This document shows, in pieces, positions 2,070-37,981 of a DNA stretch of 40,519 nt. This DNA comes from a virus. Lineage: Duplodnaviria; Heunggongvirae; Uroviricota; Caudoviricetes. Numbering within the stretch: position 1 is the stretch's first letter; each line of letters opens with the position of its first letter. The stretch is taken from the IMG/VR virus record IMGVR_UViG_2872185964_000011, one strand, 5' to 3'. Both the position numbers and the translations under genes were made by a program. The notes below the pieces were generated by a model. That model had not been told where the DNA came from. It worked only from the letters and a program-made list of their open reading frames with translations, and ran no database searches.

Positions 2070-3459
2070 GCTATACCTCTCTTTTTCATGGCATTGAGCA
2101 GGATGTCCTGCACTGTTCGTTTTGAGTTGCGCCGCTCCATCACCATTTCGTCCATAGTGTCGGCGGCGATAATGTGGTGAATGAATACCGGGCGGTTGTG
2201 TCCGGCCTGAATCTGCCGGGTTGGCCCGATGCGTTCGATAATTTGTTGGTACTGCTCCAGATCCCACCAGTGCGAGAAAAACACCAGTATGTTTCCGCCG
2301 TCCTGCATGTTCAGGCCGTGGCCCGCGCTGGCTGGGTGTGCAAAGAGAACAGGAACCTTTCCTGAATTCCAGTCGCGCAGTGTCTGTGGATCCTGGTCGA
2401 GGTGACGACCGCGAGGGAATGCTTTAAGCAAGCGTTCAAGATCGTGTTTCCAGTGATAAGCAACCAGCACAGGTGCGCCAGCTGCTTCGGTCAGTATGCT
2501 GTCCAGCGCTTGTAGTTTGGTGTCATGCAGTTCTGACCAACTTCCGGTGTCGTCTGTGTATACTGCGCCACTGGCGATTTGCAGACATTTCAGTGTCTTT
2601 GCCGCGGCGTTCGGTGCTTCGATGCCTTCGCCATTCAGCTCGAGGAACATTTCCTTTTCCATTTCACGATACTGCTGACGGGCCTTCGGTGGCATATCCA
2701 CGCGGATTACGTTATGGATGGGGTCTTTGATATCGAACCAGTCGGCCGCATCCAGCGAGAGGGTTACATCGGCTAACGCTCGCTGTATTTCACCCTGTGA
2801 GTGAGCAAAAGGCTCCAGTTTGGTCCAGCTCTGCCCGGAAACTGTATCGAGTTGAACCAGCGTGAGGTAAACGCGCCGTAAGTGCGCCCGAGACGTTGCC
2901 CCTGGTCCACAAACCACGATTGTCCCCACAAATCTACCAGGCCGTTCGGTGCTGGCGTACCGGTGAGATTTATCCAGCGCCGGACATACTTATGCGCCAC
3001 TTTGCCCAGCGCCGCCGCGCGCTTACCACCACCGCGCAGCCGGAAGGATTTTAGCCGGGTGCTTTCATCTGGAATGACAGTACCGAACGGCCATCGTTCT
3101 CCCAATTCTTCAATCAGCCAGACAAGGTTATCGTAGTTGATGGTGAACACGCTTGCGTTGCTGTTCGTCAGCGCCATAGAGCGCGCTTTGGCATTACCAA
3201 TAATTGGCTGCACCTCGATATTGCGCAAATGTCCCCACTTCAGTGCTTCATCCGGCCATGTGCTGGCAGCCACGCGCAGCGGCGCGAGGACCAGTGCGGG
3301 GCATGTTTCTGCCCCTGCCATAAAGAGATCTTCCAGCGCAGTGAGCGTTGCCACGGTTTTACCCATTCCCATACCCGCCCAGATGTTGCCGCGCAGAATG
3401 TTAGTTTGGTGATTGATTATGAGGTTTTGATAAATTCTGGGGTGGAATATGCTATTCAT
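2066..3459 (-). CDS. SNF2-family DEAD/DEAH-box helicase, reading frame broken between about 2773 and 2929
   Basis: N-part has Walker A GMGMGKT and DEAH-box-like IPDEST; C-part continues in the -1 frame (LDTVSGQSWTKLEPF...); the two ORFs overlap by 157 nt. Confidence 0.75.
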
Positions 3460-3488
3460 TAATATACCTATGGTAGAATATGGTCACT

Positions 3489-3508
3489 TCTCTCTCTCTA
3501 TATATATA
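3489..3508 (+). repeat. dinucleotide repeat tract (TC)5(TA)5 just upstream of the RBS of the 3525 gene
   Basis: tctctctctc tatatatata read directly; GGAGG RBS at 3515-3519, ATG at 3525. Confidence 0.8.
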
Positions 3509-3524
3509 ACTAACGGAGGCGGGT

Positions 3525-4334: not shown

Positions 4335-4547
4335 TTATCCTTTATTGCGGCTTAAAATAATGGCCTCCAGATTTTTGCTATCCAGCACCACTACGGTAAA
4401 GCCCAGCGCGCGCAACCGTCCGTGTTCGCGCAACTGGTCAGGCCGTGGTGGCTTGCCGGGGGATACGAACTTAAAGGCAACCCCGCCAGCCTTTTTTACT
4501 TCAGCGACGAGGTGCTTTTCGATTAGGTTTTCACGTTCATAGGCCAT
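4335..4547 (-). CDS. VRR-NUC domain protein, C-terminal part only in frame
   Basis: 70-aa ORF; segment AFKFVSPGKPPRPDQLREHGRLRALGFTVVVLDSKNLEAI resembles the C-terminal half of VRR-NUC nucleases; expected N-terminal PD motif region is not in this frame. Confidence 0.5.
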   Translation of the reverse strand: MAYERENLIEKHLVAEVKKAGGVAFKFVSPGKPPRPDQLREHGRLRALGFTVVVLDSKNLEAIILSRNKG

Positions 4548-4740
4548 TAGCTTTCGCCTTCCTGCTTTTTGCGTTTCTTCATGCAGATAGCGCAGTTCTC
4601 AGGATGGTCATGCCATTCATCAATCCTGATACCTATGAACATCCATTTTCCGCATAGTGATATGGCTTCCCCGAATTAAAGAAATGTGCTTTTTTTGACA
4701 GAGCGGGGAACCCCCAACCCTTATTATCGATATTAGACAT
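4547..4740 (-). CDS. small ORF with strong Shine-Dalgarno, frame-interrupted; either the 5' part of the VRR-NUC gene or a separate small Cys/His protein
   Basis: AAGGAGGTG then ATG at 4740; 35 codons to a TAG, then the -1 frame continues (...IDEWHDHPENCAICMKKRKKQEGES) to a TAA overlapping the VRR-NUC ATG. Confidence 0.25.
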
Positions 4741-4867
4741 CGTCCACCTCCTTACGCTTTTCGCGCATGTTCTGCATCAGACAAAAATCAAACCGACGTT
4801 CGCTTTGGCCCAGACCTGCATCGCCCGGTCGTACCCGCCGGACTGTTCAAGGTGCAAAGCCTCCCGC

Positions 4868-4892
4868 ACAGTCCGGTAATAAAGCGGACTGT
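4868..4892. promoter_or_regulatory. perfect 8-bp inverted repeat ACAGTCCG-9 nt-CGGACTGT in the intergenic region downstream of the TIR-like gene
   Basis: read directly; no adjoining T-tract, so more likely a protein-binding site or RNA structure than a terminator. Confidence 0.3.
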
Positions 4893-4927
4893 CCCGGTAT
4901 TTAAATGACATAGGGTTTTTATTCCCA

Positions 4928-4951
4928 AATAAAAAACCCCGCGATGCAGGG
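4928..4951 (-). terminator. rho-independent terminator candidate following the TIR-like gene
   Basis: on the minus strand CCCUGC-AUC-GCGGGG hairpin (one G-U pair) followed by UUUUUUAUUU. Confidence 0.5.
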
Positions 4952-4974
4952 TTGTAATCAACAATAAGGGGTAA

Positions 4975-5736
4975 TTACGAGGAAGCGTTAGCTATTTGAG
5001 CTTGTGTAAATTCGAAACCAGAATTTTGTAACCGTTGCACTAGACGAGGAACTGTTTCACGTACATGGTCGTTGAAATTCAGATACAAAATCCCGTTAGC
5101 ATCAGAAGGCTGTTCTAGGTGCTGTTTCTGAAGGATTGCTACATTGCTGCGCCCTAAGGACGAAAGAAGCATACCCATCTCGAGTACAACGTTCTGTCTT
5201 GCGCGGGGTTGGATTTCTGCTTCACCGGCGCGCTTTGAGTATCCCATATCATCAGGTGTCAAAAGAACAATCCCGAAACGGGTAGCAGTTTGTCCTTGCC
5301 CAATTTCACGTTCAAGCTCTTCAATAATGGTGAGTCCAGTCCCTCCCGTATTCTGCAAAATGAAATGGTCTGGTAATCCAAGTTTATGAAGGATTAGCTC
5401 AAGTTGCTCCTTTGCAGTATGGTCATGGCCGTGAACAATGAATATCTTTTTGGGGAGCTCAGATGGCTGTTCTACGGCTAGTGGTGTTGCCGTGGGCGGC
5501 GTTCCTAAATGGGTCATTATTGCAGTTTCAACATTGGGACGTTCTTGAGGGTTACCTTGAAACTGAATGGTCCGGGTGGTGTAAAGGTTAACAATTACGC
5601 CATTCGTTAAACGATAGCAGTCACAAGTCTCACGCTGTTCGTGGGAAAAATTGGTGAACCCACACTCCCTCAAAAAGTCAGGAAAAGTTTCTCTCGGGTA
5701 TGGATAGGTGATCGGCATTTCAGTTAGTTCCTGCAT
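4975..5736 (-). CDS. TIR-like domain protein: C-terminal TIR-like (predicted nucleotide-binding, NADase-type) domain fused to an N-terminal ~95-aa domain of unknown function
   Basis: C-terminal half KKIFIVHGHDH...GIVLLTPDDMGY...RARQNVVLEMGMLLSSLGRSNVAILQK...PSDANGILYL matches from memory the bacterial TIR-like family consensus including the conserved Glu; own RBS and downstream terminator. Confidence 0.6.
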   Translation of the reverse strand: MQELTEMPITYPYPRETFPDFLRECGFTNFSHEQRETCDCYRLTNGVIVNLYTTRTIQFQGNPQERPNVETAIMTHLGTPPTATPLAVEQPSELPKKIFIVHGHDHTAKEQLELILHKLGLPDHFILQNTGGTGLTIIEELEREIGQGQTATRFGIVLLTPDDMGYSKRAGEAEIQPRARQNVVLEMGMLLSSLGRSNVAILQKQHLEQPSDANGILYLNFNDHVRETVPRLVQRLQNSGFEFTQAQIANASS

Positions 5737-5800
5737 AAGTATTGTTCCTTTAATTTACTCGAATTCAGCATGTCGCCATAGCTCGATAAGGTGAGTTATA

Positions 5801-9156: not shown

Positions 9157-10457
9157 TCAGATGAGGTCTGCGGTTAGCGTATCGTCGGATACGTCGTCGA
9201 AATCATTTACAGGGTTGATATTGAGTGCGGGGCGTGGGTCTGACTCGGGAACGATGGTGGGTTTACCATCAGCTCGTGTTATCAGTGCCTCGACTTTTGA
9301 CCAACGGCGCGGACTGGCCTTTTTGATAAGTGTTTCGGCTTTTGTGGGGCTAATAAGTTTAAAGTCGAATACTTCTTCAGTTTTGTACCTGAACTGGTCC
9401 TTCAGAAGTGCGCGAGCTGCCTCTTCATCACTCCAGGCCCGGTTACCTTGTTTTCCTGTTACCAGTTTAAACCCCGGTACCGGATGTCCGGCATTGAGTT
9501 CATTGTGAACCCGGTCTCGTACTGCCTTTAGCCAGGATTCAATAAAGTCGGCCTGGCTATAGATCTCCGCAAGCTGCTCAATGGTTAACAGAGGTAAACG
9601 TGCGCTGGCATTGGTGATTATTTCGCTGACAGGCTTTGTCAGATCTTCAAAATCGCTGGCCGCTGTTTGTAAATGCTGCATTTTCTGGGCAGTGCAAATA
9701 GCTTTTGCTTTACAGAAGCGGCACTGTTTTTCTCCAGGTATGAAGTTTTCCAGCGGTAGTGTCTCAATGCCTTCGCATTCAGCAATATTGAGAACAAGGA
9801 TCGCACTGGTTGCGGCCTCCTGTGCCCGTTCACCGAACGCCTGGAGCTCTTCCACCGTCAGAGCCCACTCTGAAACGTGGTTAAGCCGCGGCTGGTGGAT
9901 GAACAGGCGCACCGTCTCGAAGTCGTACAGCATGCTGAATTGTTCGAGCGCACCCAGAGCATACAGTTGTAGTTGCTCATTTTGTTCTGCATCAATGCGG
10001 ACGCCTTTGCCATATTTCAGGTCGTGGATTTGTAATTCGCTACCAGCAATGATTATGCCGTCGGCAGTTCCGAAAGATTCTTCCACACCCGTTATATGTG
10101 AGAAATCAACACGTTGTTCAACCAATAGTTCATTATTCTGTGCAAGAGTCCAGACCGTATCAACATACCGGCCAACGGCTTCGACCATTTCATCATCCAC
10201 CTGTGGGCCGGATGTATCATCAGGATTTTCGCGAAGGGGTATGAGCCGAGAAACATAGAAACATTGCATCCGGCGTAGTGTTCCGGGTGGCTTTGCCTGT
10301 TTCGTAGAACTTTTTCAGCAAGCGCGTGCGCTGCAGTGCCCTCGATTGCAAAAGTTGTTTCTTTATCCGGTTGTGTGGCCTCCAGCGCCAGACTTCCTGG
10401 GCAGCGCATCCATCGATGCGCTGATGATGGAGAAAGTTGTGCGTGAACGTCTGGCAT
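9157..10457 (-). CDS. PD-(D/E)XK-type nuclease (DUF2800-like, from memory), reading frame broken near 10270-10330
   Basis: N-part [26 protein letters not shown]...[13 protein letters not shown]; C-part in the -1 frame with [12 protein letters not shown] and a [10 protein letters not shown] cysteine cluster. Confidence 0.6.
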
Positions 10458-13115: not shown

Positions 13116-15307
13116 ATGTCCGATAGCAAACCATGGGGAGCTACGCCTGATGAGTGGTTTCATTTCGACCTGGTATTGGGGAGAACTGATCATCTTCTGC
13201 CAGTTGTATGTAACCCCGGTGCGACCATATCCCCTGATAGTAAACTGAAAGCGCTGGGTAAGACGCCGAGTCGCTATAACCGGGACCGCCAGGTCACCGG
13301 TATTGCTCAATGGACCGGGCATGTTGTTACTGAGCATGATTTTGCCCGCTGGTCGAATGAACCGGATTATGGCATCTGCGTGCGTACAGGCCATGGCTGG
13401 CTGGCGCTGGACTGCGATAGCGAAGATGAAGACATTCAGGCAGATATTCGCAAAACACTTGTGCAACTTCTGGGTGAGTTGCCGCCGCGACGCTGGCGAG
13501 CAAACAGTAATAAGTGTCTGTATCTGCTGGCCGTTGATGGTGATTTCCGTAAGCGTATCCATCGCTTGGCGGGGATATGGGCATTATCGAGTTGCTGGCG
13601 AACGGGCAGCAGTTCGTTGCCTGTGGTACGCACAGCAGCGGCGCGCGTATTGAATGGGACGGCGGTCTGCCGGATGAACCTCCGGCTATTACTGGTGAGC
13701 AGCTTGAAACGCTGTGGCAGCGCCTGGCTGAACAACTCCCTGTGTCGGCAACCACCGAAGCGGGCAACACGAAGATGCGCGACCGTTCAGCATTCACGCC
13801 CGGCGCGACGGATGATACAGCTGAATATCTTGATGCCAATGGCTGGACGCTGCTGGATGGTGCAAACGGTGAACGATATATCCGCTGCCCGTTTGAAGAC
13901 GGCCACAGTAGCGGGGGCGATCCGACAAGCACAGTTTATTTTCCTGCGGGGACCGCGGGTTTTGAGCAGGGGCATTTTAAATGCCTGCATGCCAGTTGTG
14001 CGCATCGTGATGACGGAGATTTCCTTAATGCCATCGGGATCCGCAACGACGATTTCGAAGATCTGACCTGCACCGAAGTGGCGGAACCTTTACCGCTGCC
14101 GGCTTTCGAGCGTGATAAATGGGGGCGTATCGAGGCAACCATCAGCAACGCAGCCAAAGCAGTAGTACGCCCTGATTTTGTGGACATCGATATTCGCTTT
14201 GACCAGTTCCGCGACGAAATCATGTTTGCCCCTGCAGGATCCGGACAATGGCGGGCATTCACCGATGCGGATTATGCGCGCCTGCGCATCACGATGGAAA
14301 AGCGGGGATTTAAACCTGTTGGTCGTGAACTTATTCGCGATGTGGTGTTACTTGCAGCCGATGAACAACCATTCGATTCAGCGATCACTTGGCTGAACGG
14401 ACTGGAGTGGGATGGCGTGCCGCGCATCGAATGTTTCTACCATACGCACTTCGGTACCGCCGACACGCCTTATACCCGTGCGGTGTCTATGTACATGTGG
14501 ACCGCGTTGGCGGGGCGAGTACTGGAGCCAGGCATCAAAGCGGATATGGTGCCTATCCTCGTTGGTCCGCAGGGCTGCGGTAAGTCTTCCGGAGTGGAGG
14601 CACTGAGCCCTGATCCTGCGTTTTTTACTGAAATCTCTTTTGCCGAAAAAGACGATGATCTCGCTCGAAAAATGCGTGGTCGGCTGGTGGCAGAGATTGG
14701 TGAACTGCGCGGACTTAATACCAAAGAGCTGGAGTCAATCAAAGCGTTTGTGACGCGTACTCACGAAAACTGGATCCCGAAATACCGGGAGTTTGCCACC
14801 CAGTTTCCTCGTCGCCTGGTGTTCGTTGGTACCACCAATGAGGACGAATTCCTTGCGGACAAGACTGGTAACCGTCGCTGGCTCCCCGTGGAAGTGTCGA
14901 AAGTCGACGTGAAAGCGATAAAAAGAGATCTCCTTTTACTTTGGGCTGAGGCTCGTGAGGTGTTTCAGCGTCTGGGGGGTATCCAGTTCCGTGAGGCTGA
15001 ACAACTGGCAGCGAGTGTCCATGAACGGTACACCATCAAGGATGCTTGGCTTGAAACGGTAGAGAAATGGCTCGACACGCCCGACCTGATGACTAATGAA
15101 CTTCCGCGAAATTGCGAATTTTTACGCGCAAGTGATGTTTTGCGTGATGCGATTGGGCTAAATCCTGACCGCATCGGAAAACGCGAAGAAATGCGAATTA
15201 GTAATGTTTTGCAAAATTGCGGGTATAAGCGCGTTCAACGTCGTGTTGACGGAAAAATGACTCGAATTTTTGAGGCGGTGTCCCAACCTGTACCAGCTTC
15301 AAAATAG
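13116..15307 (+). CDS. replication initiation protein: primase-polymerase-like N-terminus plus VirE-like P-loop NTPase C-terminus; frame broken at G-run 13571-13574
   Basis: N-part with acidic LALDCDSEDED; C-part GPQGCGKSS Walker A and VFVGTTNEDEF Walker B-like; adding one G at 13571-13574 joins ...RKRIHRLAG to DMGIIELLANG... Confidence 0.75.
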
Positions 15308-17759: not shown

Positions 17760-17819
17760 TAGCATTACAGAAGCTCTTCTTGGAGGGCTTCGATAATGAC
17801 CTGATAACTGGAAAATAAA

Positions 17820-18391
17820 ATGACTAAGAAGCTGAAAGCAAAACACGAGGTGTTTTGTCGCGAGTTTCTTGTCGATCTTAATGCTACACAAGCAGCTATT
17901 CGCGCAGGCTACGCCTCCAGGCGAGCACATGTTACGGGGGCTGAACTATACGGTAAACCTGAGATACGCGCCCGCATCAACGAGCTAAAGCAGGAGCGTA
18001 TTGATCAACTGGGCATTGATGCGAATTATGTGCTGATGCGACTGGTTGAGATCGACAGGCTCGATGTGGCTGACATCCTGGAGGACGATTTAAGTATTAA
18101 GCCTCTGTCTGCGTGGCCGGAATCGTGGCGTCGGTACCTGAGTGGATTTAACCTCGCTGAAATGTTTGAGGGCGAGGAGATGACAGAGAAATGGTCGGGA
18201 TCCTTAAAAAGATTAAGTGGCCTGATAAGGTTAAAAACCTTGAGTTGCTTGGGCGTCATGTTTCTGTTCAGGCGTTTAAAGACAACGTCAAAAATGAAGT
18301 GACTGGCGCTGATGGAGGACCAGTCAGAACAGAAATTACCAACTTAACGCCGGAGCAGGCTGCAGAGGCGTATAGAAAAATAATGGGCTAA
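17820..18391 (+). CDS. terminase small subunit, frame broken at A-run 18189-18191
   Basis: [31 protein letters not shown] matches small-terminase N-terminus from memory; adding one A gives ...[30 protein letters not shown]... Confidence 0.75.
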
Positions 18392-21380: not shown

Positions 21381-22106
21381 CCGCAGGAACCGTCAGGCGG
21401 AAATCCGCTATCGAACCAGCCTACGCAGGATAGCGCGGGCGGTCGGAGACATCGTAAATGGTCGCTACGATGGTTCAAATGACAGTATCACGGAAATTAT
21501 TGAGGCGCTGGAACGCTACAGTGAAATCATCACCCCATGGGCGACAAAGGTCGCGGAAAACTTTACTGCGGACCTGACCCGGCAGAACGAGAAAGTTTGG
21601 CGGCAACACAGCAAGAACATCAGTCGCGAGCTCCGCAATCTTGTGGAAAGCGCTCCTGTGGGCCAGGTGATGCAATCCATCATCGCCGAACAGGTCAAGT
21701 ACATCAAATCGCTCCCCTCGAGGCGGCTGACAGGGTGTACGACATCCAGAATCGGGCGATAGAAGCTGTTGTGACCGGTGGGAGAGCAGAACATTTTGCT
21801 AAAGAAATTGCAGCATCGGGTGATATAGCAAAGTCCAGAGCTGACCTGATTGCCCGTACTGAACTTGGACGTGCAACCGGCGCGCTGGATCAGGCACGTG
21901 CGCTGTCAATTGGTTCGAATGGTTATATCTGGCGTACAGCCGAAGATGGTGACGTCAGGCATTCTCATCGGGAAATGGAAGGTAAATTTGTCGAATGGGG
22001 CAAACCTCCAACGCTTGACGGCATGACAGGTCACGCTGGCGAGTTCCCGAATTGTCGCTGTTATAAAGAAATCGTTTTTCCCACCTCCCATTCTTATCCC
22101 GCCTGA
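21373..22106 (+). CDS. head morphogenesis protein (Mu F / SPP1 gp7-like), frame broken at C-run 21714-21717
   Basis: C-terminal WRTAEDGDVRHSHREMEGKFVEW...HAGEFPNCRCY motif; adding one C joins ...KYIKSLP to LEAADRVYDIQNRAIE. Confidence 0.7.
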
Positions 22107-22120: not shown

Positions 22121-23328
22121 ATGAAATATTTTTTCAATACCCGGCTGGGGAAACCCGCTATCAGCTGGCTGACGGCTCGTTGCTGTGCAAAGACGTGCCG
22201 ATAGGACGAACAGGTAAGCAGCTCTATGGTGCTGATGACCTGCCAAAACTGAAACCCGATAAGTTCGGTGAAATAGTCGTCACGCGTTCTCCTGAGCAGG
22301 TATTCCATCCGGCCACGCTTGCCTCATTCGAAGGGATGAGCATCACGATCCTGCATCCTGAAGATGAAAACGGGAATGTGCGGCTGGTAAATCCCGAGAA
22401 CTGGAAAGAGCTTGCTGTCGGGCACCTCCAGAATGTCCGGCGCGGGACGGGGGAGCAGTCTGATTTGATGCTGGCTGACCTTATCGTCAAAGACGAAAGC
22501 GCCATTCAGCTTATCGAAGATGGCCTGCGCGAAGTGTCGTGCGGCTATGACGCGGAGTATGAGCAGACCGAGCCAGGTAAAGCCGAGCAGGTCGATATTA
22601 CCGGAAACCATGTGGCTCTTGTCCCTAAAGGCAGAGCCGGAAATCGTTGTGCAATTGGAGACAGAGACACAATGGCAAATCAAAAGAAAAGCTGGTGGAC
22701 CCGCATGCGCACGGCCATCAAAACGGGTGACGCTGACACCATGAACGAACTGGTGGAGTCGGCTCCCGCATCGGTTACAGGAGATGAGGGGGATTTGCCG
22801 CAGGGCGTTAATCTCAACATCAACCTGTCCCCGCAACAACCGCTACCGGACAAAGCACCAGAGATGGGCGGAGGTCCAACCGGCGACAGTGATGATGACC
22901 TCAAAACATTACTGAAAGCCCTGCTGGCTAAGCTGGAAGGAAATGCGACGGGCGATAACGACAATAATCCGACCGGTGACGGCGAGGACGATGAAGAGGA
23001 AACCACGATTACTGGTGACTCAGCCTGGCGTGCCGAAGTTATCGTTCCGGGTATCGATCTGAGCCGTAAGATGAAACCGACCGCGTTCAAACGCGAGGTT
23101 CTGGCTTCTGCTGACAAAACGCTGGTTCGCCAGATAGTCGGTGATGCGGATATCCGCAAATTACCGAAACAATCGGTCGACATGGCGTTTAATGCCGTGT
23201 CTGAAATTGCCAAAGGGCGAAACACCCGCGCCACCACCGGCGATGCACAGCGTCCAAACATGGGCATGACCAGTATCGCTTCCCTGAACAAACAAAACGC
23301 TGAATTCTGGGCAAACCGTAAAGGGTAA
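22121..23328 (+). CDS. capsid scaffold/prohead-associated protein (DUF2213-like, from memory), frame broken near 22147-22153
   Basis: ATG at 22121 (MKYFFNTRLG...) then -1 frame continues LADGSLLCKDVPIGRTGKQLY...; acidic low-complexity middle. Confidence 0.5.
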
Positions 23329-24801: not shown

Positions 24802-24816
24802 GGCCCGAAAGGGGCC
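24802..24816 (+). other. GC-rich stem-loop (GGCCC-gaaag-GGGCC) immediately downstream of the capsid gene
   Basis: read directly; no T-tract. Confidence 0.35.
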
Positions 24817-25572: not shown

Positions 25573-26122
25573 GTTTCAAAAGCGGTGTAACAACGAGGGT
25601 GGATAACACTAAGGCCATTCTGGATGCGCTCAGGTCGTTAACCAAAAAAGATGTGCTGGTCGGCATCCCTTCGGAAGACAGTGGGCGGGATGATGTTCCG
25701 TTTGGTAATGCGGGCATCGGTTACCTCAACGAATACGGCTCACCAGAGCAGAACATCCCGCCACGACCTCACCTGGTCCCCGGTGTTAAATCGGCAGAAG
25801 AGCAGACGGTGCCGCAGCTCAAAGCCGCGGCGCAGGCTGCACTTGATGGTAATGCTGCGGGAGCAGAACGCGCACTCAACCGTGCCGGAACACTGGCCGC
25901 TAATGGCGTCAGGCGTTACATGACCATTACCGGCTTTACGCCGCTTGCTGACAGTACTGTTGAAGCCCGGGCTCGTCGGGGCGCAAGGGGGCAACACTGG
26001 AACTTGCCCGGCGTGCTGCTGGCGAATCCCCGGGAACCGAACTGGCGAAACCATTAATTGACACCGGGCAATATCGCAGAGCGATTACCCATGTTGTGAG
26101 GGATAAAAATGCCGACTCTTGA
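25569..26122 (+). CDS. hypothetical head-tail region protein, frame broken at G-runs 25978-25991
   Basis: -1 frame continues ...[43 protein letters not shown] to a TGA overlapping the next gene. Confidence 0.5.
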
Positions 26123-28195: not shown

Positions 28196-28636
28196 ATGTC
28201 TACCTATTCTTTTATGGATGTCACTGCGACGCTGACCGGGCCGACCGGTTCGATTGACCTCGGGTACGGTTCTGCAAGTTCTGAAGAGGGGATTGTGGTT
28301 GCGATGGGCGGTCCTAAAAACACCATGACCATCGGTGCTGATGGCGAAGTGATGCACAGTCTCCATGCAGATAAAAGCGGGACGATTACCGTTAACCTTC
28401 TGAAGACATCACCGACAAATAAAAAATTGTCGCTGGCGTATAACGCACAGAGCCAGTCTTCTGCCACATGGGGGAATAACGTTATTGTGATCCGAAACAA
28501 GGTCAGCGGCGACATCATCACGGCACGTAGTGTTGCGTTCCAGAAACAACCGGATAATGCCAACGCTAAAACCGGTAATACGATGCCGTGGGTGTTTGAC
28601 TGCGGCAAGATTGACCAGGTTCTCGGGGAGTTTTAA
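28196..28636 (+). CDS. tail tube protein candidate
   Basis: 146 aa between sheath and chaperone genes. Confidence 0.55.
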   Translation: MSTYSFMDVTATLTGPTGSIDLGYGSASSEEGIVVAMGGPKNTMTIGADGEVMHSLHADKSGTITVNLLKTSPTNKKLSLAYNAQSQSSATWGNNVIVIRNKVSGDIITARSVAFQKQPDNANAKTGNTMPWVFDCGKIDQVLGEF

Positions 28637-28639
28637 TAC

Positions 28640-29092: not shown

Positions 29093-29269
29093 CGTTTAAC
29101 AGCCTGCCGGACGGGCTGTCCTACCTTCTCAATCCGGTTGACGCCGGGTTAATTCCTTATACAGCACTTAAAGATGGCTCTGTCGATTTGTACGATATTG
29201 CTCTCTTGAATGACCATCTGGCGGTAAAAGCGGATAACCAGCGGCGCATTGAGAAATGGAGAGAGGATA

Positions 29270-31257
29270 ATGAACGCTGAAACTATTAAAGATTTCCTCG
29301 TCTCGCTTGGCTTCAGTGTGGATGATGCTGGAGCAAAAAAATTCGGTTCTGTCCTCGCCGGTACAACTGCAAATGTCATCAAAATGGGGTTGGCCGTTGA
29401 AGGAGCTGCACTGTCCGTGGTGGCCTTTACGGCTAAGATTGCCTCCGGCCTGGATAATCTTTACTGGGCGTCACAGCGCACTGGCGCGACAGTCCAGGGA
29501 ATTCAGTCTATTGGATATGCGGTTTCGCGGGTTGGCGGCAGCGTGGACGCTGCGCGATCTTCTCTGGAAAGCCTCTCCCGGTTTATTCGTAACAATCCCG
29601 GTGCAGAGGGATTTCTGAATCGCCTGGGGTACAGACACGGGATGCCAGCGGTAACATGCGTGACATGGCCGCTATTTTTACAGGTGTAGGCCAGAAGCTC
29701 AGCGGCATGCCGTATTACCGGGCTAACCAGTATGCGCAGATGCTGGGCATTGACGAAAATACCCTTATGGCGATGCGCCGGGGTGTGGGTGGTTTCTCCG
29801 GGCAGTACAGCGCAATGGCGAAAGCTATCGGCTTCAATGCTGAAGAGGCGGCCAGAAGCTCCAACAAATTTATGACCTCCCTGCGTGAGTTTAGCGCGAT
29901 GGCAGGCATGGCCCGTGACAAAATCGGCTCTAATCTTGCGGGTGGGCTTGCGGGTTCGCTGGACACCCTGCGCCGCCATATCCTGGACAACTTCCCGCGT
30001 ATCGAGCAGACCCTGACGAAAGCCATAAAAGGCATTCTGGCGCTCGGGGATATTATCGGGCGGCTGTTCTTCAGACTGATTGAAGGAACATCAAGCCTCA
30101 TCACCTGGTGGCAATCGCTGGATAAGCAAACGCGGGAGTTGATCTCGCTGTTTGGCGCACTGACGATTGCGCTGCGCATTCTGAACAGTACGTTCTGGAT
30201 GTCGCCGATTGGCCTCATTACCGCGCTGGCGGCGGGGATTGCCCTCCTGTGGGAGGACTATCAGACCTGGAAGGAAGGCGGCGACAGCCTGATTGACTGG
30301 GGCAAGTGGAAACCGGAGGTTGATGCCGCGCTGAAGATGGTTCGTGACCTTAAAACGACCGTTAACGACCTGGTGAAAGCGCTGGCGAAACTGCTCAATA
30401 TTGACCCCAAATCATGGTCCCTGAAGTGGGATTTCAGCAACTTCATCGACCAGATGGGCGAATTCAGCAAAATGCTGAACATGATCGCCGACCTGCTCAA
30501 CGCTATCAAAGATGGCCGCTGGGTTGATGCCGTCAGCATCGGCAAACAGATACTTAATCAGGGCAGCGAAAATCCGTCAGCGATGCCGATAGTTACAGAC
30601 AGCGCTAACAGTACTGCCGACTGGATTAAAGAGCACTGGGGATTCGATCCCCGCAGCGTGGGCCGGACGGTACGCGGCTGGTTTGGTGATGATGAGCCGG
30701 AACAATATGCACAGGCTACGAAACGAGGAGAACGGAATAACAATCCGGGAAACCTTAATTTTGCTGGTCAGGCAGGGGCTTCTCTTGAACGCCCGGGCGG
30801 GCGATTTGCCAGATTTGAAACTGCTTTTGATGGATTACGGGCTCTTGCTCGTCAGTTAATGCTGTACGCCGGACGGGGAATAAACAGTGTGGAGAAAATT
30901 ATCTCTACCTGGGCACCTGCGTCTGATAATAACAACACAACTGCGTATATCAGGGCTGTATCGCAACGACTGGGAGTGGATCCCCGGGCTGCCCTGAATA
31001 TGAGCGAGCCGCAAACCATGTCAGCATTGATGAGCAGCATTATCCAGCATGAAAATGGAAGAAATATCTATTCCCGAGAGCTGATTAATAAGGCTGCCGT
31101 GGCGGGAATTAGTGGCAAAATGACAGAGGTTAATCAGCAAAATACTTACCACATTTACGGTGGCGGAGATCCGCACGCTGTCGGTAATGAGGTTGCACGT
31201 CGGCAACAGTCTGCAAATGCTCAGGTCATGCGAAGTAATCAGGTGAGGGTGGGTTAG
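29270..31257 (+). CDS. tail tape measure protein, frame broken at G-run 29626-29629
   Basis: adding one G gives ...FLNRLGVQTRDASGNMRDMAAIFTG...; long helical protein. Confidence 0.75.
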
Positions 31258-31922
31258 TGGATATTCTCTCTACACTTTTTCATCAGCAGAGCAGAAAAAT
31301 AGGAATGATTGTTCCCAGTGTTGTTATTTCAGAGAAGCATACAGATATGCTTGAAATAACAGAGCATCCGGTAGAGGTCGGGGCTGCTGTCGCTGATCAT
31401 GCCTATAAAAAACCGTCAGAAGTGGTGATGGAGGTTGGTTTCGCCGGTGGCGGCGCATTGCTGGATTTTGCCAGTAATCTGACAGCTACCAGCCTGCTCG
31501 GCCTGAGTCCTCAGCAGACGTATCAGGAGCTACTGGATCTGCAGGAAAGCCGTATCCCCTTCGATGTGGTAACCGGTAAACGACTGTACAGCAACATGTT
31601 GATCCGGGCGCTGGAAGTGACGACGGACAAGACAACCGAAAACGTCCTGTCCGCCGTTCTTACCCTGAGGGAGGTCCTTATCTCCCGGACACAGCAGATT
31701 ACCGTCGCGGATAAAACCAATATGAAGGAAGGGGCCAGCACCTCGGCGGTACAGAACAGCGGCAACAAAACCACAAAACCTCCAGATACTTCACTGCTGA
31801 AAAGCATCACGGGTAACGTGGCGTCATTACTGGGGGCGGCTAATGACAATTCAGGAAATTCCGCTGACAGCGGACAACCAGCAGTTCAGCATCGTCCTGG
31901 GTGGTGTCACCTGGCGGATTAG
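31257..31922 (+). CDS. hypothetical tail/baseplate protein; true stop probably at 31841-31843
   Basis: if one G is missing in the G-run 31832-31836 the protein ends ...SLLGGG at a TAA overlapping the next ATG. Confidence 0.45.
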   Translation: MDILSTLFHQQSRKIGMIVPSVVISEKHTDMLEITEHPVEVGAAVADHAYKKPSEVVMEVGFAGGGALLDFASNLTATSLLGLSPQQTYQELLDLQESRIPFDVVTGKRLYSNMLIRALEVTTDKTTENVLSAVLTLREVLISRTQQITVADKTNMKEGASTSAVQNSGNKTTKPPDTSLLKSITGNVASLLGAANDNSGNSADSGQPAVQHRPGWCHLAD

Positions 31923-32145
31923 CATCATATGGCGCGATCTTTACTGGATTATGGACCTGCTGAATGACAGAGGGGAGCCGGTAATCTCCGGTATTCCTCT
32001 CGTCACTGGCGCTGATCTGCTGGCGCAGTACGCCTGTATGGGACTTGGTTTTAAGCTGTTGGTGGTCTGTGATGACAACACACAGGATTATCCCACGAAA
32101 ACTGACCTGGGCGGGCGCAGTCATTTACTGGTATCAACGGAGTAA
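31843..32145 (+). CDS. hypothetical tail/baseplate protein
   Basis: 100-aa ORF MTIQEIPLTADNQQFSIVLGGVTWRISIIW... Confidence 0.5.
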   Translation: MTIQEIPLTADNQQFSIVLGGVTWRISIIWRDLYWIMDLLNDRGEPVISGIPLVTGADLLAQYACMGLGFKLLVVCDDNTQDYPTKTDLGGRSHLLVSTE

Positions 32146-32147
32146 GC

Positions 32148-33208
32148 ATGTCACAGAACTGGATGAGACATTTCGAGCTGCAGCTTGTGGACGGGAACGG
32201 TCAGGGAATTGAGCTAAGTGATTTCAAAGTCACCTTTACGATCGACTGGTTCAACATCAGCAGCGCGTCCCGGGTAGGGACTATCAAAATTTATAACCTT
32301 TCGGCAGATACTGTGAACCGAATTACCGGGCAGGAGTTTTCGAAAGTGCGTCTGATTGCGGGTTACGACGGTATCGCTCCGGAGGTGTCGGCAAGCGACG
32401 TCGGGACAGTGCGGGAAGTTGACGCGGCGAACGTGGGCCAGAGTAATGGTCGCAACTACGGACTGATTTTCAGCGGTGAAATTCGCTACTCGGTCACAGG
32501 AAAAGACAGTCCGGTTGATTCCTACGTCCTGATTCAGGCAGCAGATACTGATCTGGCTTTTGCCACCAGTATAACCTCACAGACGCTGGCTGCCGGTTAC
32601 ACGGTCGCTGATGTGAACCGTGCGCTGATGAAAGACTTCGAAGCCAAAGGTGTGACCGAAGGCCTGACGCCTGAAATGCCTGCTACTGTATTCCCCCGGG
32701 GCGGGTGCTCTTTGGCATGACGCGGCATCTAATGGATAACGTAGCCGAGCAATGTGGCGCAACATGGCAATTCGTGGACGGTCAGCGCCAGATGGTGGCG
32801 ACTAATGAATATGTTCACGAAGCGATTGTGCTCAACAGTGCTACCGGGCTTATTGGCATGCCGCAGCAGACCATCGGCAACGGCGTAAACGTCCGCGCTC
32901 TTATTAATCCGAACATCCGGGTTAACGGGCTCATTCAGCTGGATCAGGCTTCCGTCTATCGTACCGCGTTGTCGAACAACGATATTGCGATGGCTGGTGG
33001 TCAGATCACCGACCAGAACACGGACGGAAATATCACGCTCAGCGGCACCACATCGCAGCCTGCCAGCATCGCAACGGATGGCGTTTATATTGTGCGCGGG
33101 ATTATGTACAGTGGCGATACAAGGGGCCAGGCGTGGTACATGGATATGATGTGCGAAGCGCGTGGCGCGGCGGATCTGTATACGCAATCGGCTTTGCAAA
33201 GGGGATGA
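32148..33208 (+). CDS. baseplate hub / late-control-D-like tail protein, frame broken at 32693-32705
   Basis: two ORF-track pieces (190 and 167 aa) join across a C5/G4 run; position upstream of spike protein. Confidence 0.55.
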
Positions 33209-33211
33209 GCA

Positions 33212-33553
33212 ATGAGGGGTATTATTTTTCTGTTAGCTGTCTTTTCTGCGTGCAGCGCGTGGGCGGATGGCTTCACGGTTAAATGCGGTGGCTACACTAT
33301 GGTTGCAAACCAGGGCGAGTTATCGACAATCAACGGTGAAAAAGTTACCTCTCAAAAAATCACCGAACTGGGTACCAATGGTTTGAAAGTAGACATGGGG
33401 CTTATGCCTGCCAAAGACGGTAACAACTACGGCTTTGAATACATTCGTCGCCCTGGTACCGAAACGCGATTCCTGAATGTCCAACTGCTGCAGAACAGCA
33501 TGGATGCGCCGAAAATCATCGGTTCCTTTCCATGCAAAAAGATTGTTGATTAA
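33212..33553 (+). CDS. secreted small protein of unknown function (moron gene)
   Basis: 113 aa; signal peptide MRGIIFLLAVFSACSAWA; two Cys in the mature part; wedged between hub and spike genes. Confidence 0.55.
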   Translation: MRGIIFLLAVFSACSAWADGFTVKCGGYTMVANQGELSTINGEKVTSQKITELGTNGLKVDMGLMPAKDGNNYGFEYIRRPGTETRFLNVQLLQNSMDAPKIIGSFPCKKIVD

Positions 33554-33570
33554 TCACTCGTAATTATAAT
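33543..33570 (+). promoter_or_regulatory. sigma70-like promoter candidate for the 33607 gene
   Basis: TTGTTG, 16-bp spacer, TATAAT, about 37 nt upstream of the ATG. Confidence 0.4.
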
Positions 33571-33606
33571 GTGATACTTCTACTTTCACGATAAGGAATT
33601 TGTCGC

Positions 33607-33846
33607 ATGTTCGGATTTGATAAATTAATAACTCCAAAAATCATCAACGTTCTGTATGGCATCACAATGTTACTTCTGGTTGTTGCCGCCATTATAACGT
33701 TTGTTAATGGGAAGGCTGCTGGCGCTTTAGTGCTTTTGTTATGTGCTGTATTTTGCCGAATATTCTTTGAGTGCATCATGGTTTCATTTAAAAACAATGA
33801 GTATCTTCGCCGAATAGCTGAAGCGTTAGAAGCAAACAAGCAGTAA
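33607..33846 (+). CDS. small two-helix membrane protein of unknown function (moron gene)
   Basis: 79 aa with two hydrophobic helices; AAGGAA RBS; followed by a strong terminator. Confidence 0.55.
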   Translation: MFGFDKLITPKIINVLYGITMLLLVVAAIITFVNGKAAGALVLLLCAVFCRIFFECIMVSFKNNEYLRRIAEALEANKQ

Positions 33847-33863
33847 TGAAACTTCAATAATGA

Positions 33864-33888
33864 ACCCGCCACCCGGCGGGTTTTTTGC
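33864..33888 (+). terminator. rho-independent terminator
   Basis: CCCGCC-accc-GGCGGG hairpin followed by TTTTTT. Confidence 0.7.
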
Positions 33889-33905
33889 TTTCTGGAGCCT
33901 ACTAA

Positions 33906-34657
33906 ATGGCAGTATCTGACCAGACCCGCAGCGGCGACCTTGCCGAAACATTCAAATCTGAACGGGAAACAACAAAGAACCAGATCCGTGTCGCCTTGCC
34001 TGGCATTGTTCAGTCATTCGATCCCGACGCGGTGACGGCGGTTGTGCAGCCAGCTATCCGTTCGGTTGAAAAGGATAACGACGGTAACCGCATTACCAAA
34101 AATTACCCGTTGCTGGTGGATGTGCCAGTGGTATTTCCGCGCGGCGGAGGCTGTACGTTGACTTTTCCGGTTAAAGCCGGGGATGAGTGTCTTGTCGTTT
34201 TTGCCGATCGTTGTATTGATTTCTGGTGGCAGAGCGGTGGGATACAGGAGCCGGTCGATGACAGAATGCATGATTTATCGGATGCGTTTTGTATTGTCGG
34301 TCCCCAGTCGCAGGCGAGGAAGATTAGCGGTATTAATACCAGTGCCACACAGTTGCGTAGTGACGACGGCAGCACCTATTTTGAGCTTAATCCTGATACC
34401 CGGAAAATTAAAATTGTCGTCCCGGGTGGTCTTGATGTGGTTGCCCCTCTGGCTGATTTTTCTGAGAAAGTAACCATTCATGGCCTGTTAACCTGGATGG
34501 GGGCATGGTGGGGTCTGTTGTTTCTGGTGTGGCTTCAAAAATCACTGGTGCTGTTGAGTTCTTGGGGAGCGTTAAGGCTAACGGCAAGCCAATCGATGAT
34601 ACGCACACTCATGGCGGTGTTCAGCGCGGTGGAAGCAATACCGATGGGGTAAACTGA
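33906..34657 (+). CDS. baseplate spike protein (gpV / Mu gp45-like), frame broken near 34481-34505
   Basis: -1 frame gives C-terminus ...GSVVSGVASKITGAVEFLGSVKANGKPIDDTHTHGGVQRGGSNTDGVN ending at a TGA overlapping the next ATG. Confidence 0.6.
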
Positions 34658-35010
34658 TGCGATACAGACGTGAAGACGCCGATGGTGATTACACCTTTGG
34701 CAGCGGTGATGACACCTGGCTGATTAACTCACCGGAGGCCGTGGCGCAGGCGGTAAAAACGCGATTCGAATTGTGGTATGGGCAATGGTTTCTCGACACC
34801 ACCGAAGGGACTCCATGGATCCAGTCCGTGCTGGGCAGGCAGAAGCCGGAAACCTACAACCTGGCGATCCGTAAGCGCATTCTGGAAACGCAGGGCGTTA
34901 AATCAATCCTCTCTTTCAATACGACGGTGGATACCACGACCCGACGTGTCATGTTTTCCGCTGAAATCGACACTCTTTATGGAATAACGACTGTTACATC
35001 GGAGGCGTAA
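34657..35010 (+). CDS. baseplate protein (gpW / Mu gp46-like candidate)
   Basis: 117-aa ORF between spike and J-like genes. Confidence 0.5.
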   Translation: MRYRREDADGDYTFGSGDDTWLINSPEAVAQAVKTRFELWYGQWFLDTTEGTPWIQSVLGRQKPETYNLAIRKRILETQGVKSILSFNTTVDTTTRRVMFSAEIDTLYGITTVTSEA

Positions 35011-36208
35011 TGGCTCTGAACCTTGATTCTCTCGGTTTATCTGCAAAGGTAACCGCGGAGGGGATCAGTGCGCCTGATTATCAGACGATACTCAGCACCC
35101 TGATTAGCTATTTTCAGCAGATTTATGGTAGTGATGCCTACCTCGAACCGGACAGCAAAGACGGTCAGATGGTGGCTCTGATGGCGCTGGCGATTCATGA
35201 TGCCAATAATACGGCGATAACTGTCTACAACTGTTTTTCACCGGCAACCGGCTATGGGGCTGCACTGACCAGTAACGTGAAAATAAATGGTATTTCACGT
35301 AAAGGCGCGACGAACTCTACGGTTGATTTGCTTCTTACAGGAACTGCCGGAACAACCATCATTAATGGCAGCGTGAAAGACAGTAATAATGTGATATGGC
35401 GTTTGCCTGCTTCAGTGGTGGTAGGCGTGGATGGTACAGTGATGGTGACCGCAACATGTTCCGTCAGTGGTGCAGTGGCGGCGCTGGCTGGAACTATCAC
35501 TGAAATTAATACGCCAACCCGTGGCTGGGTTTCGGTAACCAATCCTGCTGCAGCCACTGTGGGCACTCCGGCAGAAACTGATGCGGAGTTACGTATCCGC
35601 CAGTCGCAAAGTGTTGCGTTGCCATCAATAACCCCATTTGAAGCACTGGATGGTGCTGTTTCTAATGTTGCCGGTGTAACACGCCACAAACTCTATGAAA
35701 ATGATACTGGTTCGGAGGACGGTAACGGGTTACCGCCACACTCTGTTGCTGTGATTGTGGATGGCGGTGATGTGACGGATATTGCTCAGGCTATCAGAGG
35801 GAATAAAGGTCAGGGGACAGCCACTCACGGTACAACATCCGTTACGGTTCCGGATAAATACGGCAATCCCCATGTAATCAAGTTCTCGCGTTCCAGTGAT
35901 GTACCTGTTTATGCCCAGATCAAATTAAAAGTTTTTACGGGTTATACCTCACAGATAGGGCAGCAGATCCAGCAGGCTATTTCCGACTATATCAATAGTC
36001 TGACGATTGGTGATTCGATCCTTTTGAGTCGCATTTACTCACCGGCAAATCTTGGCGTGGTGAGTGGCGGGAATGCACGCTATTACGATATTCAGGAACT
36101 GACGATTGGGAAATCCCCGGGGCTTTGTCGCCATCAAACATTGATATCAGATATAACGAATCTGCGTCCTGTACCCCGGAAAATATCGTTATAACGGTGG
36201 AGTCATGA
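35010..36208 (+). CDS. baseplate J-like protein, frame broken near 36108-36122
   Basis: -1 frame gives natural C-terminus ...[28 protein letters not shown] with a TGA overlapping the next ATG. Confidence 0.6.
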
Positions 36209-36885
36209 GCAAATACACCGAACTAATCACGAACTACCACGCCACCAAACCTAAATTTCTTGCACATGTTGATCTGATGACCCGGCCGCTTATTGATGTT
36301 GCGGCTGCCACCAGCGGGCTGATTACTGCATTTGATATTGACTCTGCGGTTGGTGTGCAACTTGACATTCTGGGATTGTGGATCGGACGTAGCCGTGTTG
36401 TCAGCCAGCCTATTTCAGGTGTCTATTTCAGCTTGGATACCGACGGGCTTGGATATGATCAGGGGGTATGGCAGGGACCATACGATCCTGATTCCGGATA
36501 CATGTACCTCAGCGATGAAACTTATCGTGTCATTCTTAAAGCGAAGATTGCGATTAATAACTGGGATGGACGGAATGATTCGCTTCCGGCAATTCTTGAC
36601 GCTGCAACAGCAGGATCCGGGCTGCGAATGCAGATAGTCGATAACCAGGACATGACGATATCGGTCTGGGTCTTTCCTGATACTGATATTTCAGATGTAT
36701 CGCGTGAGTTAATTGCGGCAATTAAACAGGGGTATCTCACAGTTAAAGCCGCCGGGGTATGGGCGGGTGGCATTGAAACACCTTCGGTGGAAACTCCATC
36801 GGAAGGTTCAAAATTTTTTGGTTTTGATATGGATAACGAATTTATCAGTGGTTTTGATGTAGGGGCATGGGGAGTATTACTCTGA
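36205..36885 (+). CDS. baseplate/tail protein (gpI / Mu gp48-like candidate)
   Basis: 226-aa ORF; stop overlaps the tail fibre start. Confidence 0.5.
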
Positions 36886-37981
36886 TGGCAAAAAATGACT
36901 TTAAAACATTCGCAACGGGTAAAAATGCCAATGTTATGTCGCAGGAGGAATGGGAAGCGTTGCCTGCGCTTTTATCCGGATTTACAGCAGGGAAAGCATC
37001 CAGTGCGCAAGTCAATAAGGTTATTCGGCAGGCCAGCTTTATTGCATCTGCAATAGCACAATATACAGCAAATGAAAGTGGACTGGATGTACAGGACGAT
37101 GGCGATCAGGCCGGCTTTATCGCAAAAATGTCGTCTGCATTAGATAAGAACTATCAGAGAATTAATGCCATACTTACCGCACTTGCTAATCTTTCAGCAT
37201 CCGAAAACAAATTACCGTATTTTACCAATCAAGATACCGCTAATTTGGCTGACCTGACACAGGTTGGGCGAGATATTTTGGCAAAAAGCTCTGTTGCTGA
37301 TGTCCTTAAATATCTTGGTTTGGAAAATAATTCGACCTTTCCTGTAGGTGCCCCGATCCCGTGGCCATCAGATACAGTTCCATCTGGTTATGCTCTGATG
37401 CAGGGACAGACTTTTGACAAGTCTGCATACCCGAAACTTGCAGCCGCTTATCCGTCAGGCGTGATCCCTGATATGCGTGGCTGGACAATCAAAGGTAAGC
37501 CTGCAAGTGGACGTGATGTTCTTAGCCAGGAACAGGACGGCATTAAATCGCACACCCACAGCGCCAGTGCTTCAAATACAGATTTAGGGACAAAAAACAC
37601 ATCATCGTTTGATTATGGAACTAAATCTACGAATAACACTGGTGCGCATACCCATAGCGTTAGCGGAACAGCAGCTTCAGCAGGTGCACATACGCATCCG
37701 ATATCTCAGGGGATAATGCTAACGTTAGCTCCGGTAGAGTAGCTTCGTCGAACTCTGCTCAAACTCACTTAGGTGCAACGAATTCTGCTGGCGCGCATAC
37801 CCACTCAGTATCAGGTACTGCAGCAAGTGCTGGGGCGCATACACATACTGTCGGTATTGGTGCTCATACGCACTCCGTTGCGATTGGCTCACATGGACAC
37901 ACCATCACCGTTAACGCTGCTGGTAACGCGGAAAACACCGTCAAAAACATCGCATTTAACTATATTGTGAGGCTTGCATAA
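36885..37981 (+). CDS. tail fibre protein, frame broken at G-run 37709-37712
   Basis: repeated GAHTHS motifs; -1 frame continues through more of them to ...[11 protein letters not shown], a tail-fibre C-terminus I recognise. Confidence 0.75.

Follow-up and report, generated by a model that had tools for sequence, protein, structure and literature searches.

Phase-variable contingency tracts sit at specific loci and are long homopolymers, usually of 7 or more bases, which gain or lose length from one isolate to another. Programmed frameshifts are a classic feature of phage tail chaperone genes, Pol IV-dependent mutagenesis favors −1 frameshifts in short G:C runs, and Shigella is a group known for the accumulation of pseudogenes. 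In real mutation spectra, indel rates grow with run length, and the spectra of mismatch-repair-deficient E. coli are dominated by substitutions, with about 7 substitutions per small indel and A:T runs included (PMC8510543). Sequencing can also break reading frames: PacBio-only assemblies contain single-base deletions of G or C in homopolymers 4 to 6 long (ARAMIS study, PMC8574707), and the PacBio genome of Clostridium autoethanogenum had about 240 under-called homopolymers, without exception in one direction, as confirmed in a Sanger-sequenced sample (PMC4687164).

The stretch of DNA analyzed here (the window; 40,519 nucleotides) is 100% identical to CP026872.1 (GCA_002950295.1), which is listed as Shigella sp. 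Absence of this assembly from the RefSeq E. coli collection made us consider that it had been dropped for its frameshifts, and we rejected this: a GCF accession exists among the Shigella sp. genomes, so the absence is taxonomic. The underlying prophage is phiTE/E217-like, contractile-tailed, integrated adjoining yfhL, and largely intact. We aligned the window with its nearest relative, NZ_CP116169.1 (L001; 99.93% identity). The alignment contains 17 one-base gaps, and each of them is a G or C absent from the window inside a G/C run (Table 1). The affected runs are 3 to 5 long in the window and 4 to 6 in other assemblies; 15 of the sites break a gene and 2 are intergenic. Apart from these gaps, the two sequences differ by 10 substitutions, by a +2 (AT) repeat difference at 15389, and by a deletion of 75 bp. 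Judged from sequence comparison, the frame breaks are almost certainly consensus errors in the deposited record and not mutations.

An initial annotation of the window had listed 13 frame breaks and attributed them to systematic assembly errors. All 13 are real, with a one-base gap at each, and 11 lie where they had been placed; the breaks in the nuclease and the small terminase are genuine as well but sit at other positions (Table 1). The VRR-NUC region (4335-4740) had been suspected as a further case. A break is indeed present there, but it falls in the adjacent 64-aa gene, and VRR-NUC itself is in frame. The integrase site and both intergenic sites had been missed, and it had gone unnoticed that the breaks are confined to G/C runs and spare A/T runs.

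Table 1. One-base deletions in G/C runs of the window. Positions are window coordinates; "Loci" gives the alignable loci in which the run is one base longer, and the last column gives the position of the break in the initial annotation.
Feature	Position	Strand	Run in window (in relatives)	Loci	Effect in the window	Initial annotation
Integrase (tyrosine), 5′ part	560..564	+	C5 (C6)	14/14	True start near 476; surviving ORF 580-1872, 430 aa instead of 465	Missed
DEAD/DEAH (SNF2) helicase	2834..2836	-	C3 (C4 in close relatives)	14/14	Split into 2066-2929 and 2773-3459	Same site
64-aa hypothetical gene just upstream of VRR-NUC	4669..4672	-	C4 (C5)	11/11		4335-4740, as VRR-NUC
DUF2800/PD-(D/E)XK nuclease	10236..10239	-	G4 (G5)	21/21	Split into 9157-10269 and 10092-10457	10270-10330
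VapE-type primase/helicase	13571..13574	+	G4 (G5)	20/20	Split into 13116-14066 and 13577-15307	Same site
Intergenic, Rz-like gene/small terminase gap	17785..17787	.	G3 (G4)	21/21	No gene affected	Missed
Small terminase	18170..18172	+	G3 (G4)	20/20	Pieces 17820-18302 and 18191-18391; 190 aa once repaired	18189-18191
Mu F-like head morphogenesis	21714..21717	+	C4 (C5 or equal-length interrupted run)	24/24		Same site
DUF2213 (Pa193_gp24-like) head gene, near 5′ end	22147..22150	+	G4 (G5)	24/24	ORF restart at 22180	Same site
Intergenic, major capsid/STY1053-family gap	24804..24806	.	C3 (C4)	15/15	No gene affected	Missed
184-aa head-tail gene, start 25569	25978..25981	+	G4 (G5)	25/25		Same site
Tape measure/lytic transglycosylase, 662 aa	29626..29629	+	G4 (G5)	40/40	Split into 29249-29689 and 29656-31257	Same site
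Dit-like baseplate protein (31257-31922), near 3′ end	31832..31836	+	G5 (G6)	30/30		Same site
Baseplate hub, 353 aa	32698..32701	+	G4 in C5G4 context (C5G5)	28/30	Split into 32148-32720 and 32705-33208	Same site
Membrane-puncturing spike (33906-34652), near 3′ end	34499..34503	+	G5 (G6)	23/23		Same site
Baseplate J/gp47 (35010-36194), near 3′ end	36119..36122	+	G4 (G5)	23/23	399 aa once repaired	Same site
Tail fibre	37709..37712	+	G4 (G5)	19/19	Truncated, 36867-37742, 291 aa; 365 aa in intact relatives	Same site

That all breaks run in one direction and that one added base restores the protein also held: all 17 one-base indels are deletions (binomial p = 1.5 × 10−5), and adding the 17 bases to the window gave 15 full-length genes. 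Of the repaired products, 13 are identical to annotated proteins of L001, while DUF2800 and the spike are full-length and differ by substitutions only. The shortened runs depend strongly on length and base. Among G/C runs, 4 of 153 runs of 4 (2.6%), 10 of 29 runs of 5 (34%), and 3 of 4 runs of 6 (75%) are short (p = 3 × 10−8 for runs of 4 against runs of at least 5). None of the 422 A/T runs of at least 4 is affected, although 50 of them are 6 to 8 long (Fisher p = 1 × 10−9 for G/C against A/T), and there are no homopolymer insertions. The error is probabilistic and not absolute, since it left the other 19 of the 29 G/C runs of 5 intact.

Comparing run lengths with close relatives, a check that the initial annotation had proposed, we found the relatives one base longer at every site. 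The longer runs occur in finished genomes, draft assemblies, Logan assemblies, and one phage record, and run length at the 17 sites is otherwise constant across these assemblies; the hub site alone has two exceptions. In L036 the G5 is complete, one C is missing from the adjacent run, and the hub gene is uncalled; since the missing base belongs to the neighboring run, L036 is no counterexample to the longer run. L047 shows a net-zero length change with the hub gene again uncalled, and a regular-expression check of the run at this site gave no match. At least one other finished assembly, CP043825.1, contains an error of the same class at one of the same sites, and a second finished assembly, CP014752.1, has a matching length anomaly at that site.

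A gap in a pairwise alignment is logically symmetrical, and on that ground the window could be correct and its relatives the carriers of insertion errors. We give this practically no credence: many independent assemblies, contributing 11 to 40 loci at each site, support the longer run, and it is this run that yields intact, conserved ORFs. The breaks do fall on homopolymers, which are potentially slippery, and the short runs could be genuine if they were read by programmed ribosomal frameshifting or transcriptional slippage, in the manner of the tail chaperone genes. However, the two-frame arrangement is not conserved: in the relatives, where the run is one base longer, each of these proteins is encoded in one frame. 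Recoding would further require the same trick in fifteen unrelated genes of one isolate only, and some sites, in the window and in the host, are intergenic. Such recoding is vanishingly unlikely.

We then consider whether the short runs belong to a lineage or to a single deposit. The 430-aa truncated integrase product is on record from a single contig only, CP026872.1. Exact-product look-ups with the truncated tail fibre (291 aa), the helicase fragment (287 aa), and the VapE N-terminal fragment (316 aa) returned no matches; it is likely that the gene caller chose other start codons or left these fragments uncalled. CP026872.1 was instead reached through the intact DNA polymerase, the 70-aa VRR-NUC allele, and the 430-aa integrase product. 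The Logan assemblies ERR5984644 and SRR7501311 (L012 and L016) are independent assemblies of the same clone, from other sequencing runs that may represent other isolates of the clone and not the same culture. They show 0 substitutions against the source over 20.2 and 13.7 kb and differ from it only at 8 and 6 G/C runs, in each of which the source lacks one base. Of the 8 deletions, 5 lie within the prophage and 3 fall in intergenic host DNA. Sites 17785-37709 were compared with near relatives only (substitutions per kb: L001, 0.25; L022, 0.42; L029/L035, 0.69) and not with same-clone assemblies; for the window's right two-thirds, look-ups with TerL, the acetyltransferase, the cement protein, and the tail fibre assembly protein recovered neither the source nor a comparator free of substitutions.

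The host chromosome is affected as well. Over 9.4 kb of host flank aligned with two finished genomes, the only indels are three intergenic C5/G5 runs; this stretch excludes the right-hand flank beyond IS1 as well as the window's own yfhL segment and ~330 bp IS1 fragment, whose length is too small to reveal errors. G/C runs of 5 number five or six in this flank, with at most one in a gene; of the 5 that are intergenic, 3 are short. The per-run rates in host and prophage are indistinguishable (3/6 against 13/33; Fisher p = 0.67). Host genes are spared because the flanking coding sequence is almost devoid of G/C runs of at least 5. Errors are thus met in coding and intergenic DNA, in the mobile element and in the host chromosome, and the 2 intergenic sites among the 17 in the window likewise indicate a pattern unrelated to genes. 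With runs private to one deposit, disagreement within one clone, and both host and intergenic DNA hit, the earlier attribution to systematic assembly errors, as opposed to decay, is upheld. The refutation that the initial annotation had named, high-accuracy reads that confirm the deposited run lengths, is contradicted as far as comparison with other assemblies reaches.

This does not mean that the prophage is free of lesions. A nonsense codon in the portal gene, which causes a 34-aa truncation, is common to the window, L001, and L022, and VRR-NUC (4335-4547) is a 70-aa allele with an in-frame deletion of 75 bp, or 25 aa, that several independent assemblies have in common. The portal stop and the VRR-NUC deletion are real, inherited-type lesions, unlike the 17 frameshifts. 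These two lesions, together with the listing of the host as Shigella, would fit genuine decay, in which real frameshift mutations gathered after a defective prophage lost function. But L001 and L022 carry the portal lesion and none of the frameshifts, and none of the 17 is common to any relative. In the zero-substitution same-clone assemblies all 8 shared runs are full-length; beyond the prophage, host DNA holds three events, and two events in the window are intergenic. Decay would also have to produce 17 of 17 events as −1 changes in G/C runs with 0 of 422 A/T runs touched. The substitution-to-indel ratio is 10:17 against L001 (p = 9 × 10−10) and 0:8 against the same clone (p = 5 × 10−8), far outside even the mismatch-repair-deficient spectrum. 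We regard decay as very improbable.

Another reading is a real mutator signature confined to this isolate, with many −1 frameshifts arising at G:C runs in the sequenced culture, for example through SOS/Pol IV-type slippage or loss of mismatch repair. A directional, base-specific process of this type exists in Pol IV, and real spectra also show the indel rate growing with run length (PMC8510543). Still, there are 20 events in about 50 kb with no substitutions against the same clone, whereas mismatch-repair-deficient spectra consist mostly of substitutions and include A:T runs (PMC8510543). Extrapolated, this density would imply well over a thousand frameshifts per genome, which is hard to square with a culturable isolate. 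Rates of 34% and 75% at runs of 5 and 6 are the behavior of a measurement bias, not of rare mutation. A mutator is therefore extremely improbable, and it would take an exceptional culture for the short G/C runs to be real in it, one with extreme −1 mutagenesis of G:C runs (Pol IV/SOS-like), no substitutions, and some thousand frameshifts tolerated.

Consensus error would explain these observations as follows. The sequencing and consensus step would have read G and C homopolymers one base too short, with a chance of error that climbs steeply with run length, from ~3% at 4 to ~35% at 5 and ~75% at 6; A/T runs were called correctly. The error would be genome-wide and not specific to the prophage. 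The prophage looks worst hit because its genes hold many G5/C5 runs; neighboring host genes are almost without such runs, and host errors consequently fall in intergenic DNA.

The value of this result lies in data quality and not in biology: an ordinary assembly artefact makes a largely intact prophage look dead. Annotators would wrongly score the prophage as defective, since 15 of its ~50 genes seem broken, among them integrase, helicase, primase, terminase, tape measure, baseplate, and tail fibre genes. Shigella pseudogene counts, which are interpreted biologically, would be inflated too. Given the per-run error rates and the scarcity of G5/C5 runs in host genes, DNA gained by horizontal transfer can seem to have decayed selectively when a long-read assembly is left unpolished, and scans for "decaying" mobile elements should reckon with G/C-run under-calling.

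How does the window compare with known systems? It resembles phase-variable poly-G/poly-C contingency tracts in that changes in G/C homopolymer length switch the reading frame. But its runs are 4 to 6 long and always change by −1, and the change is seen in one assembly only, at dozens of sites with no relation to one another, some of them in intergenic host DNA. We considered phase variation and rejected it on the length of the tracts, 4 to 6, and the lack of two-way length variation among other assemblies. As in prophage and Shigella pseudogenization, many genes of one mobile element are disrupted, and two lesions here are genuine. Real decay, however, leaves lesions of mixed kinds and directions that are inherited by related strains and accompanied by substitutions, and the 17 frameshifts show none of this. 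Oxford Nanopore errors share some features with the window (Kastor, PMC12007338; polishing benchmark, PMC11232133): deletions dominate, homopolymers of ~4-5 or more are hit, and genes are fragmented. Yet those errors lean to A/T runs, with insertions and substitutions mixed in (PMC12007338, PMC11232133), whereas the window has 0 of 422 A/T runs affected and no insertions, which makes a nanopore origin less likely. Under-calling in PacBio-only (continuous long read) assemblies shares with the window single-base deletions only, concentrated in G/C runs of 4 to 6; coverage does not remove them from the consensus, they create spurious frameshifted genes, and they occur in coding and non-coding DNA alike. 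The match has its differences: the ARAMIS E. coli example (PMC8574707) also had A/T insertion errors, which the window lacks, and in the low-GC C. autoethanogenum (PMC4687164) T runs were hit besides C runs, while the window is affected in G/C runs only. Among published error profiles, a PacBio-type assembly from long reads only, without short-read polishing, is nevertheless the best match, and it is the platform that we would cautiously favor.

The best relative of the prophage, in NZ_CP116169.1 (L001), is 99.93% identical to it across the entire element. A base-by-base alignment of the two shows 17 one-base gaps, along with 10 substitutions, a 75-bp deletion, and a length difference in an (AT) repeat. 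At all 17 gaps, a G or C is absent from the window within a G/C homopolymer, which is 3 to 5 bases long in the window and 4 to 6 in L001. Two gaps are intergenic, and the other 15 lie in the genes for the integrase, SNF2 helicase, a 64-aa protein beside VRR-NUC, DUF2800 nuclease, VapE primase, small terminase, Mu F-like head protein, DUF2213, a 184-aa protein, tape measure, Dit-like baseplate protein, hub, spike, baseplate J, and tail fiber. The initial annotation had proposed that one added base mends each broken protein. Indeed, all 15 genes became full length when we inserted the 17 bases in silico: 13 products matched the annotated L001 proteins exactly, and DUF2800 and the spike differed from theirs by substitutions only. 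The 13 frame breaks listed there all exist, 11 of them at the positions given and two displaced by about 20 to 35 nt; a possible fourteenth, suspected at VRR-NUC, is also real but belongs to the neighboring gene. The integrase break and both intergenic sites were absent from that list. Separately, the window has one more unit of the (AT)n repeat than L001, and a (TC)n(TA)n tract carries a boundary substitution, with relatives varying by 4 to 6 bases in the nearby (TA)n.

Positions of features in the window
Feature	Position	Strand
(TC)n(TA)n tract	~3498	
VRR-NUC gene	4335-4547	
Junction of the 75-bp deletion	4456-4464	
Slot, VRR-NUC to DNA polymerase	4548-5800	
TIR-domain gene (Pfam CAP12-PCTIR_TIR)	4975-5736	
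(AT)n repeat	15389	
Intergenic gap	17785	
Portal gene	20016-21380	
Portal stop codon	21378-21380	
Intergenic gap	24804	
Tail assembly chaperone gene	28640-29092	
Small DUF6889 ORF	~29116-29280	
Hub site	32698-32701	
Serine acetyltransferase-like gene	38564-39109	minus
IS1 copy, continuing past the window end	40187-40519	

The gaps are far from random in direction, base, and length. All 17 are deletions (P = 1.5e-5). G/C runs were shortened in 4/153 cases at length 4, 10/29 at length 5, and 3/4 at length 6 (length 4 versus 5 or more, P = 3e-8). None of the 422 A/T runs of 4 or more was affected, 159 of them being 5 or more long (G/C versus A/T, P = 1e-9).

We then compared run lengths across assemblies. 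Seven annotated relatives have unbroken copies of the affected genes, with each run one base longer. Across all gathered loci that could be aligned, 11 to 40 per site, every locus has a net extra base at each site, except for L036 (CP043825.1) and L047 (CP014752.1) at the hub site. Some diverged relatives seem to have a short run, but the extra base is there, with a different nucleotide interrupting the run. At the hub site, at the equivalent of window 32693-32701, L036 reads C4G5, the window C5G4, and all others compared C5G5; L036 has no gene calls for hub and pqiA, and its adjacent run appears to have a G/C homopolymer undercall of the same class. L047 has net-zero length relative to the window there and no hub gene call. 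Programmed recoding at these sites is excluded, as each of the proteins is read from one frame in every relative. In tailed phages, genuine programmed frameshift pairs usually lie just before the tape measure, the position here of the tail assembly chaperone gene and a small DUF6889 ORF overlapping the tape measure start.

Exact matches to protein products led to the source: the window is 100% identical to loci of GenBank CP026872.1 (GCA_002950295.1), a 4.71-Mb chromosome, and corresponds to about 4,132,693 to 4,173,211. This genome has been placed among those of Shigella sp. (PMC12679885). No other contig has a record of the 430-aa integrase product truncated by the frameshift. Two independent Logan assemblies, ERR5984644 (L012) and SRR7501311 (L016), carry the same rare 70-aa VRR-NUC allele and served as same-clone comparators. 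There were no substitutions in 20.2 kb against L012 or in 13.7 kb against L016, and the sole differences were one-base G/C-run deletions in the source, eight and six, respectively. These comprise five prophage and three host deletions, the latter between yfhL/acpS and rnc/lepB. Compared with two finished genomes, the host flank from rseA to yfhL (9.4 kb) showed 50 to 62 substitutions, marking ordinary divergent strains, and the sole indels were at the same three intergenic C5 runs.

Real decay of the prophage is contradicted on three counts: the same-clone assemblies have full-length runs at the sites they share with the source, short runs also occur in the host and between genes, and none of the frameshifts is inherited by relatives. 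A mutator is contradicted as well: in mismatch repair-defective E. coli, substitutions exceed small indels about 7:1 (6.02 versus 0.85 per coding sequence; PMC8510543), but the ratio here is 10:17 against L001 (P = 9e-10) and 0:8 against the same clone (P = 5e-8). Host genes are intact because G/C runs of 5 or more are nearly absent from host coding sequence (zero in the comparison with L012, one in that with the host-flank comparator L040); of five such intergenic runs, three are shortened. Per run, the rates are statistically indistinguishable, 3/6 in the host and 13/33 in the prophage (P = 0.67). Together with the host sites themselves, this places the defect in the assembly rather than the prophage, which looks worse because its genes hold many G5/C5 runs. 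The frame breaks are an assembly artifact, as the initial annotation had suspected; same-clone assemblies, host sites, and base and length dependence all support systematic error.

Two lesions are of another kind. The VRR-NUC gene has an in-frame 75-bp (25-codon) deletion between 9-bp direct repeats (CCGGGGGAT); all seven annotated relatives retain the 75 bp. The allele is real, as 15 contigs, independent assemblies among them, encode an identical 70-aa product. In the portal gene, TAA replaces the GAA of most relatives, which removes 34 of 488 residues and leaves 454 aa; the shortened gene stops near the point where the overlapping Mu F-like gene begins. This stop is shared with L001, where it is annotated "internal stop," and the near relative L022, and is therefore a genuine lineage allele. 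With the 17 bases put back, the prophage is intact apart from these two lesions.

The prophage, about 40 kb and adjoining yfhL, makes up the window; it opens with a tyrosine integrase and closes with genes for tail fiber assembly, an acetyltransferase, and a 215-aa protein, followed by IS1. Close relatives are frequent in E. coli, with 102 complete genomes matching a 20-kb query over 80% or more of its length; related phage records include vB_EcoM-611R5/689R2 (97%) and Salmonella phage SEN34 (83%). Structural genes belong to phiTE/E217-type Pfam families (for example, portal_3, Mu_F, a DUF3383 family protein [Pfam E217_gp31_N], Tube_PhiTE, and Baseplate_J). The IS1 copy is 92% identical to that of L004 and fits the cataloguing of the source as Shigella sp.; in relatives, prophage or host sequence follows here instead. 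The slot between VRR-NUC and DNA polymerase differs in cargo between the window and L002 to L006: a TIR-domain protein in the window and L001, an ATP-binding protein in L002, methyltransferases in L003, and YfbU-family genes in L006. It looks like a hotspot for defense or accessory genes. The SIR2 gene of L004 sits in a neighboring slot. The hexapeptide-repeat serine acetyltransferase-like gene, located after the tail fiber assembly gene at the right end of the prophage, is conserved in many relatives and may be a lysogenic-conversion (surface-modification) gene.

Biased measurement of homopolymer length would leave G/C runs short in the deposited sequence. Errors that are one-directional, base-specific, steeply dependent on run length, indifferent to function, and private to one deposit behave as measurement bias does. 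If the 20 events observed over about 50 kb are crudely scaled up, the 4.71-Mb chromosome might hold more than a thousand of them. The artifact calls for caution with pseudogene and prophage integrity calls in unpolished long-read genomes. The source was probably a long-read-only, PacBio-type assembly made without short-read polishing. PacBio-only assemblies bear the same signature, losing one G or C from homopolymers of 4 to 6 even at very high coverage (PMC8574707). In a PacBio bacterial genome, about 240 homopolymers were called short; the discrepancies all ran the same way, as Sanger sequencing of a sample of them confirmed (PMC4687164). Nanopore errors, in contrast, are reported to be biased to A/T runs with insertions mixed in (PMC12007338, PMC11232133), a profile unlike that of the window, where A/T runs kept their length.
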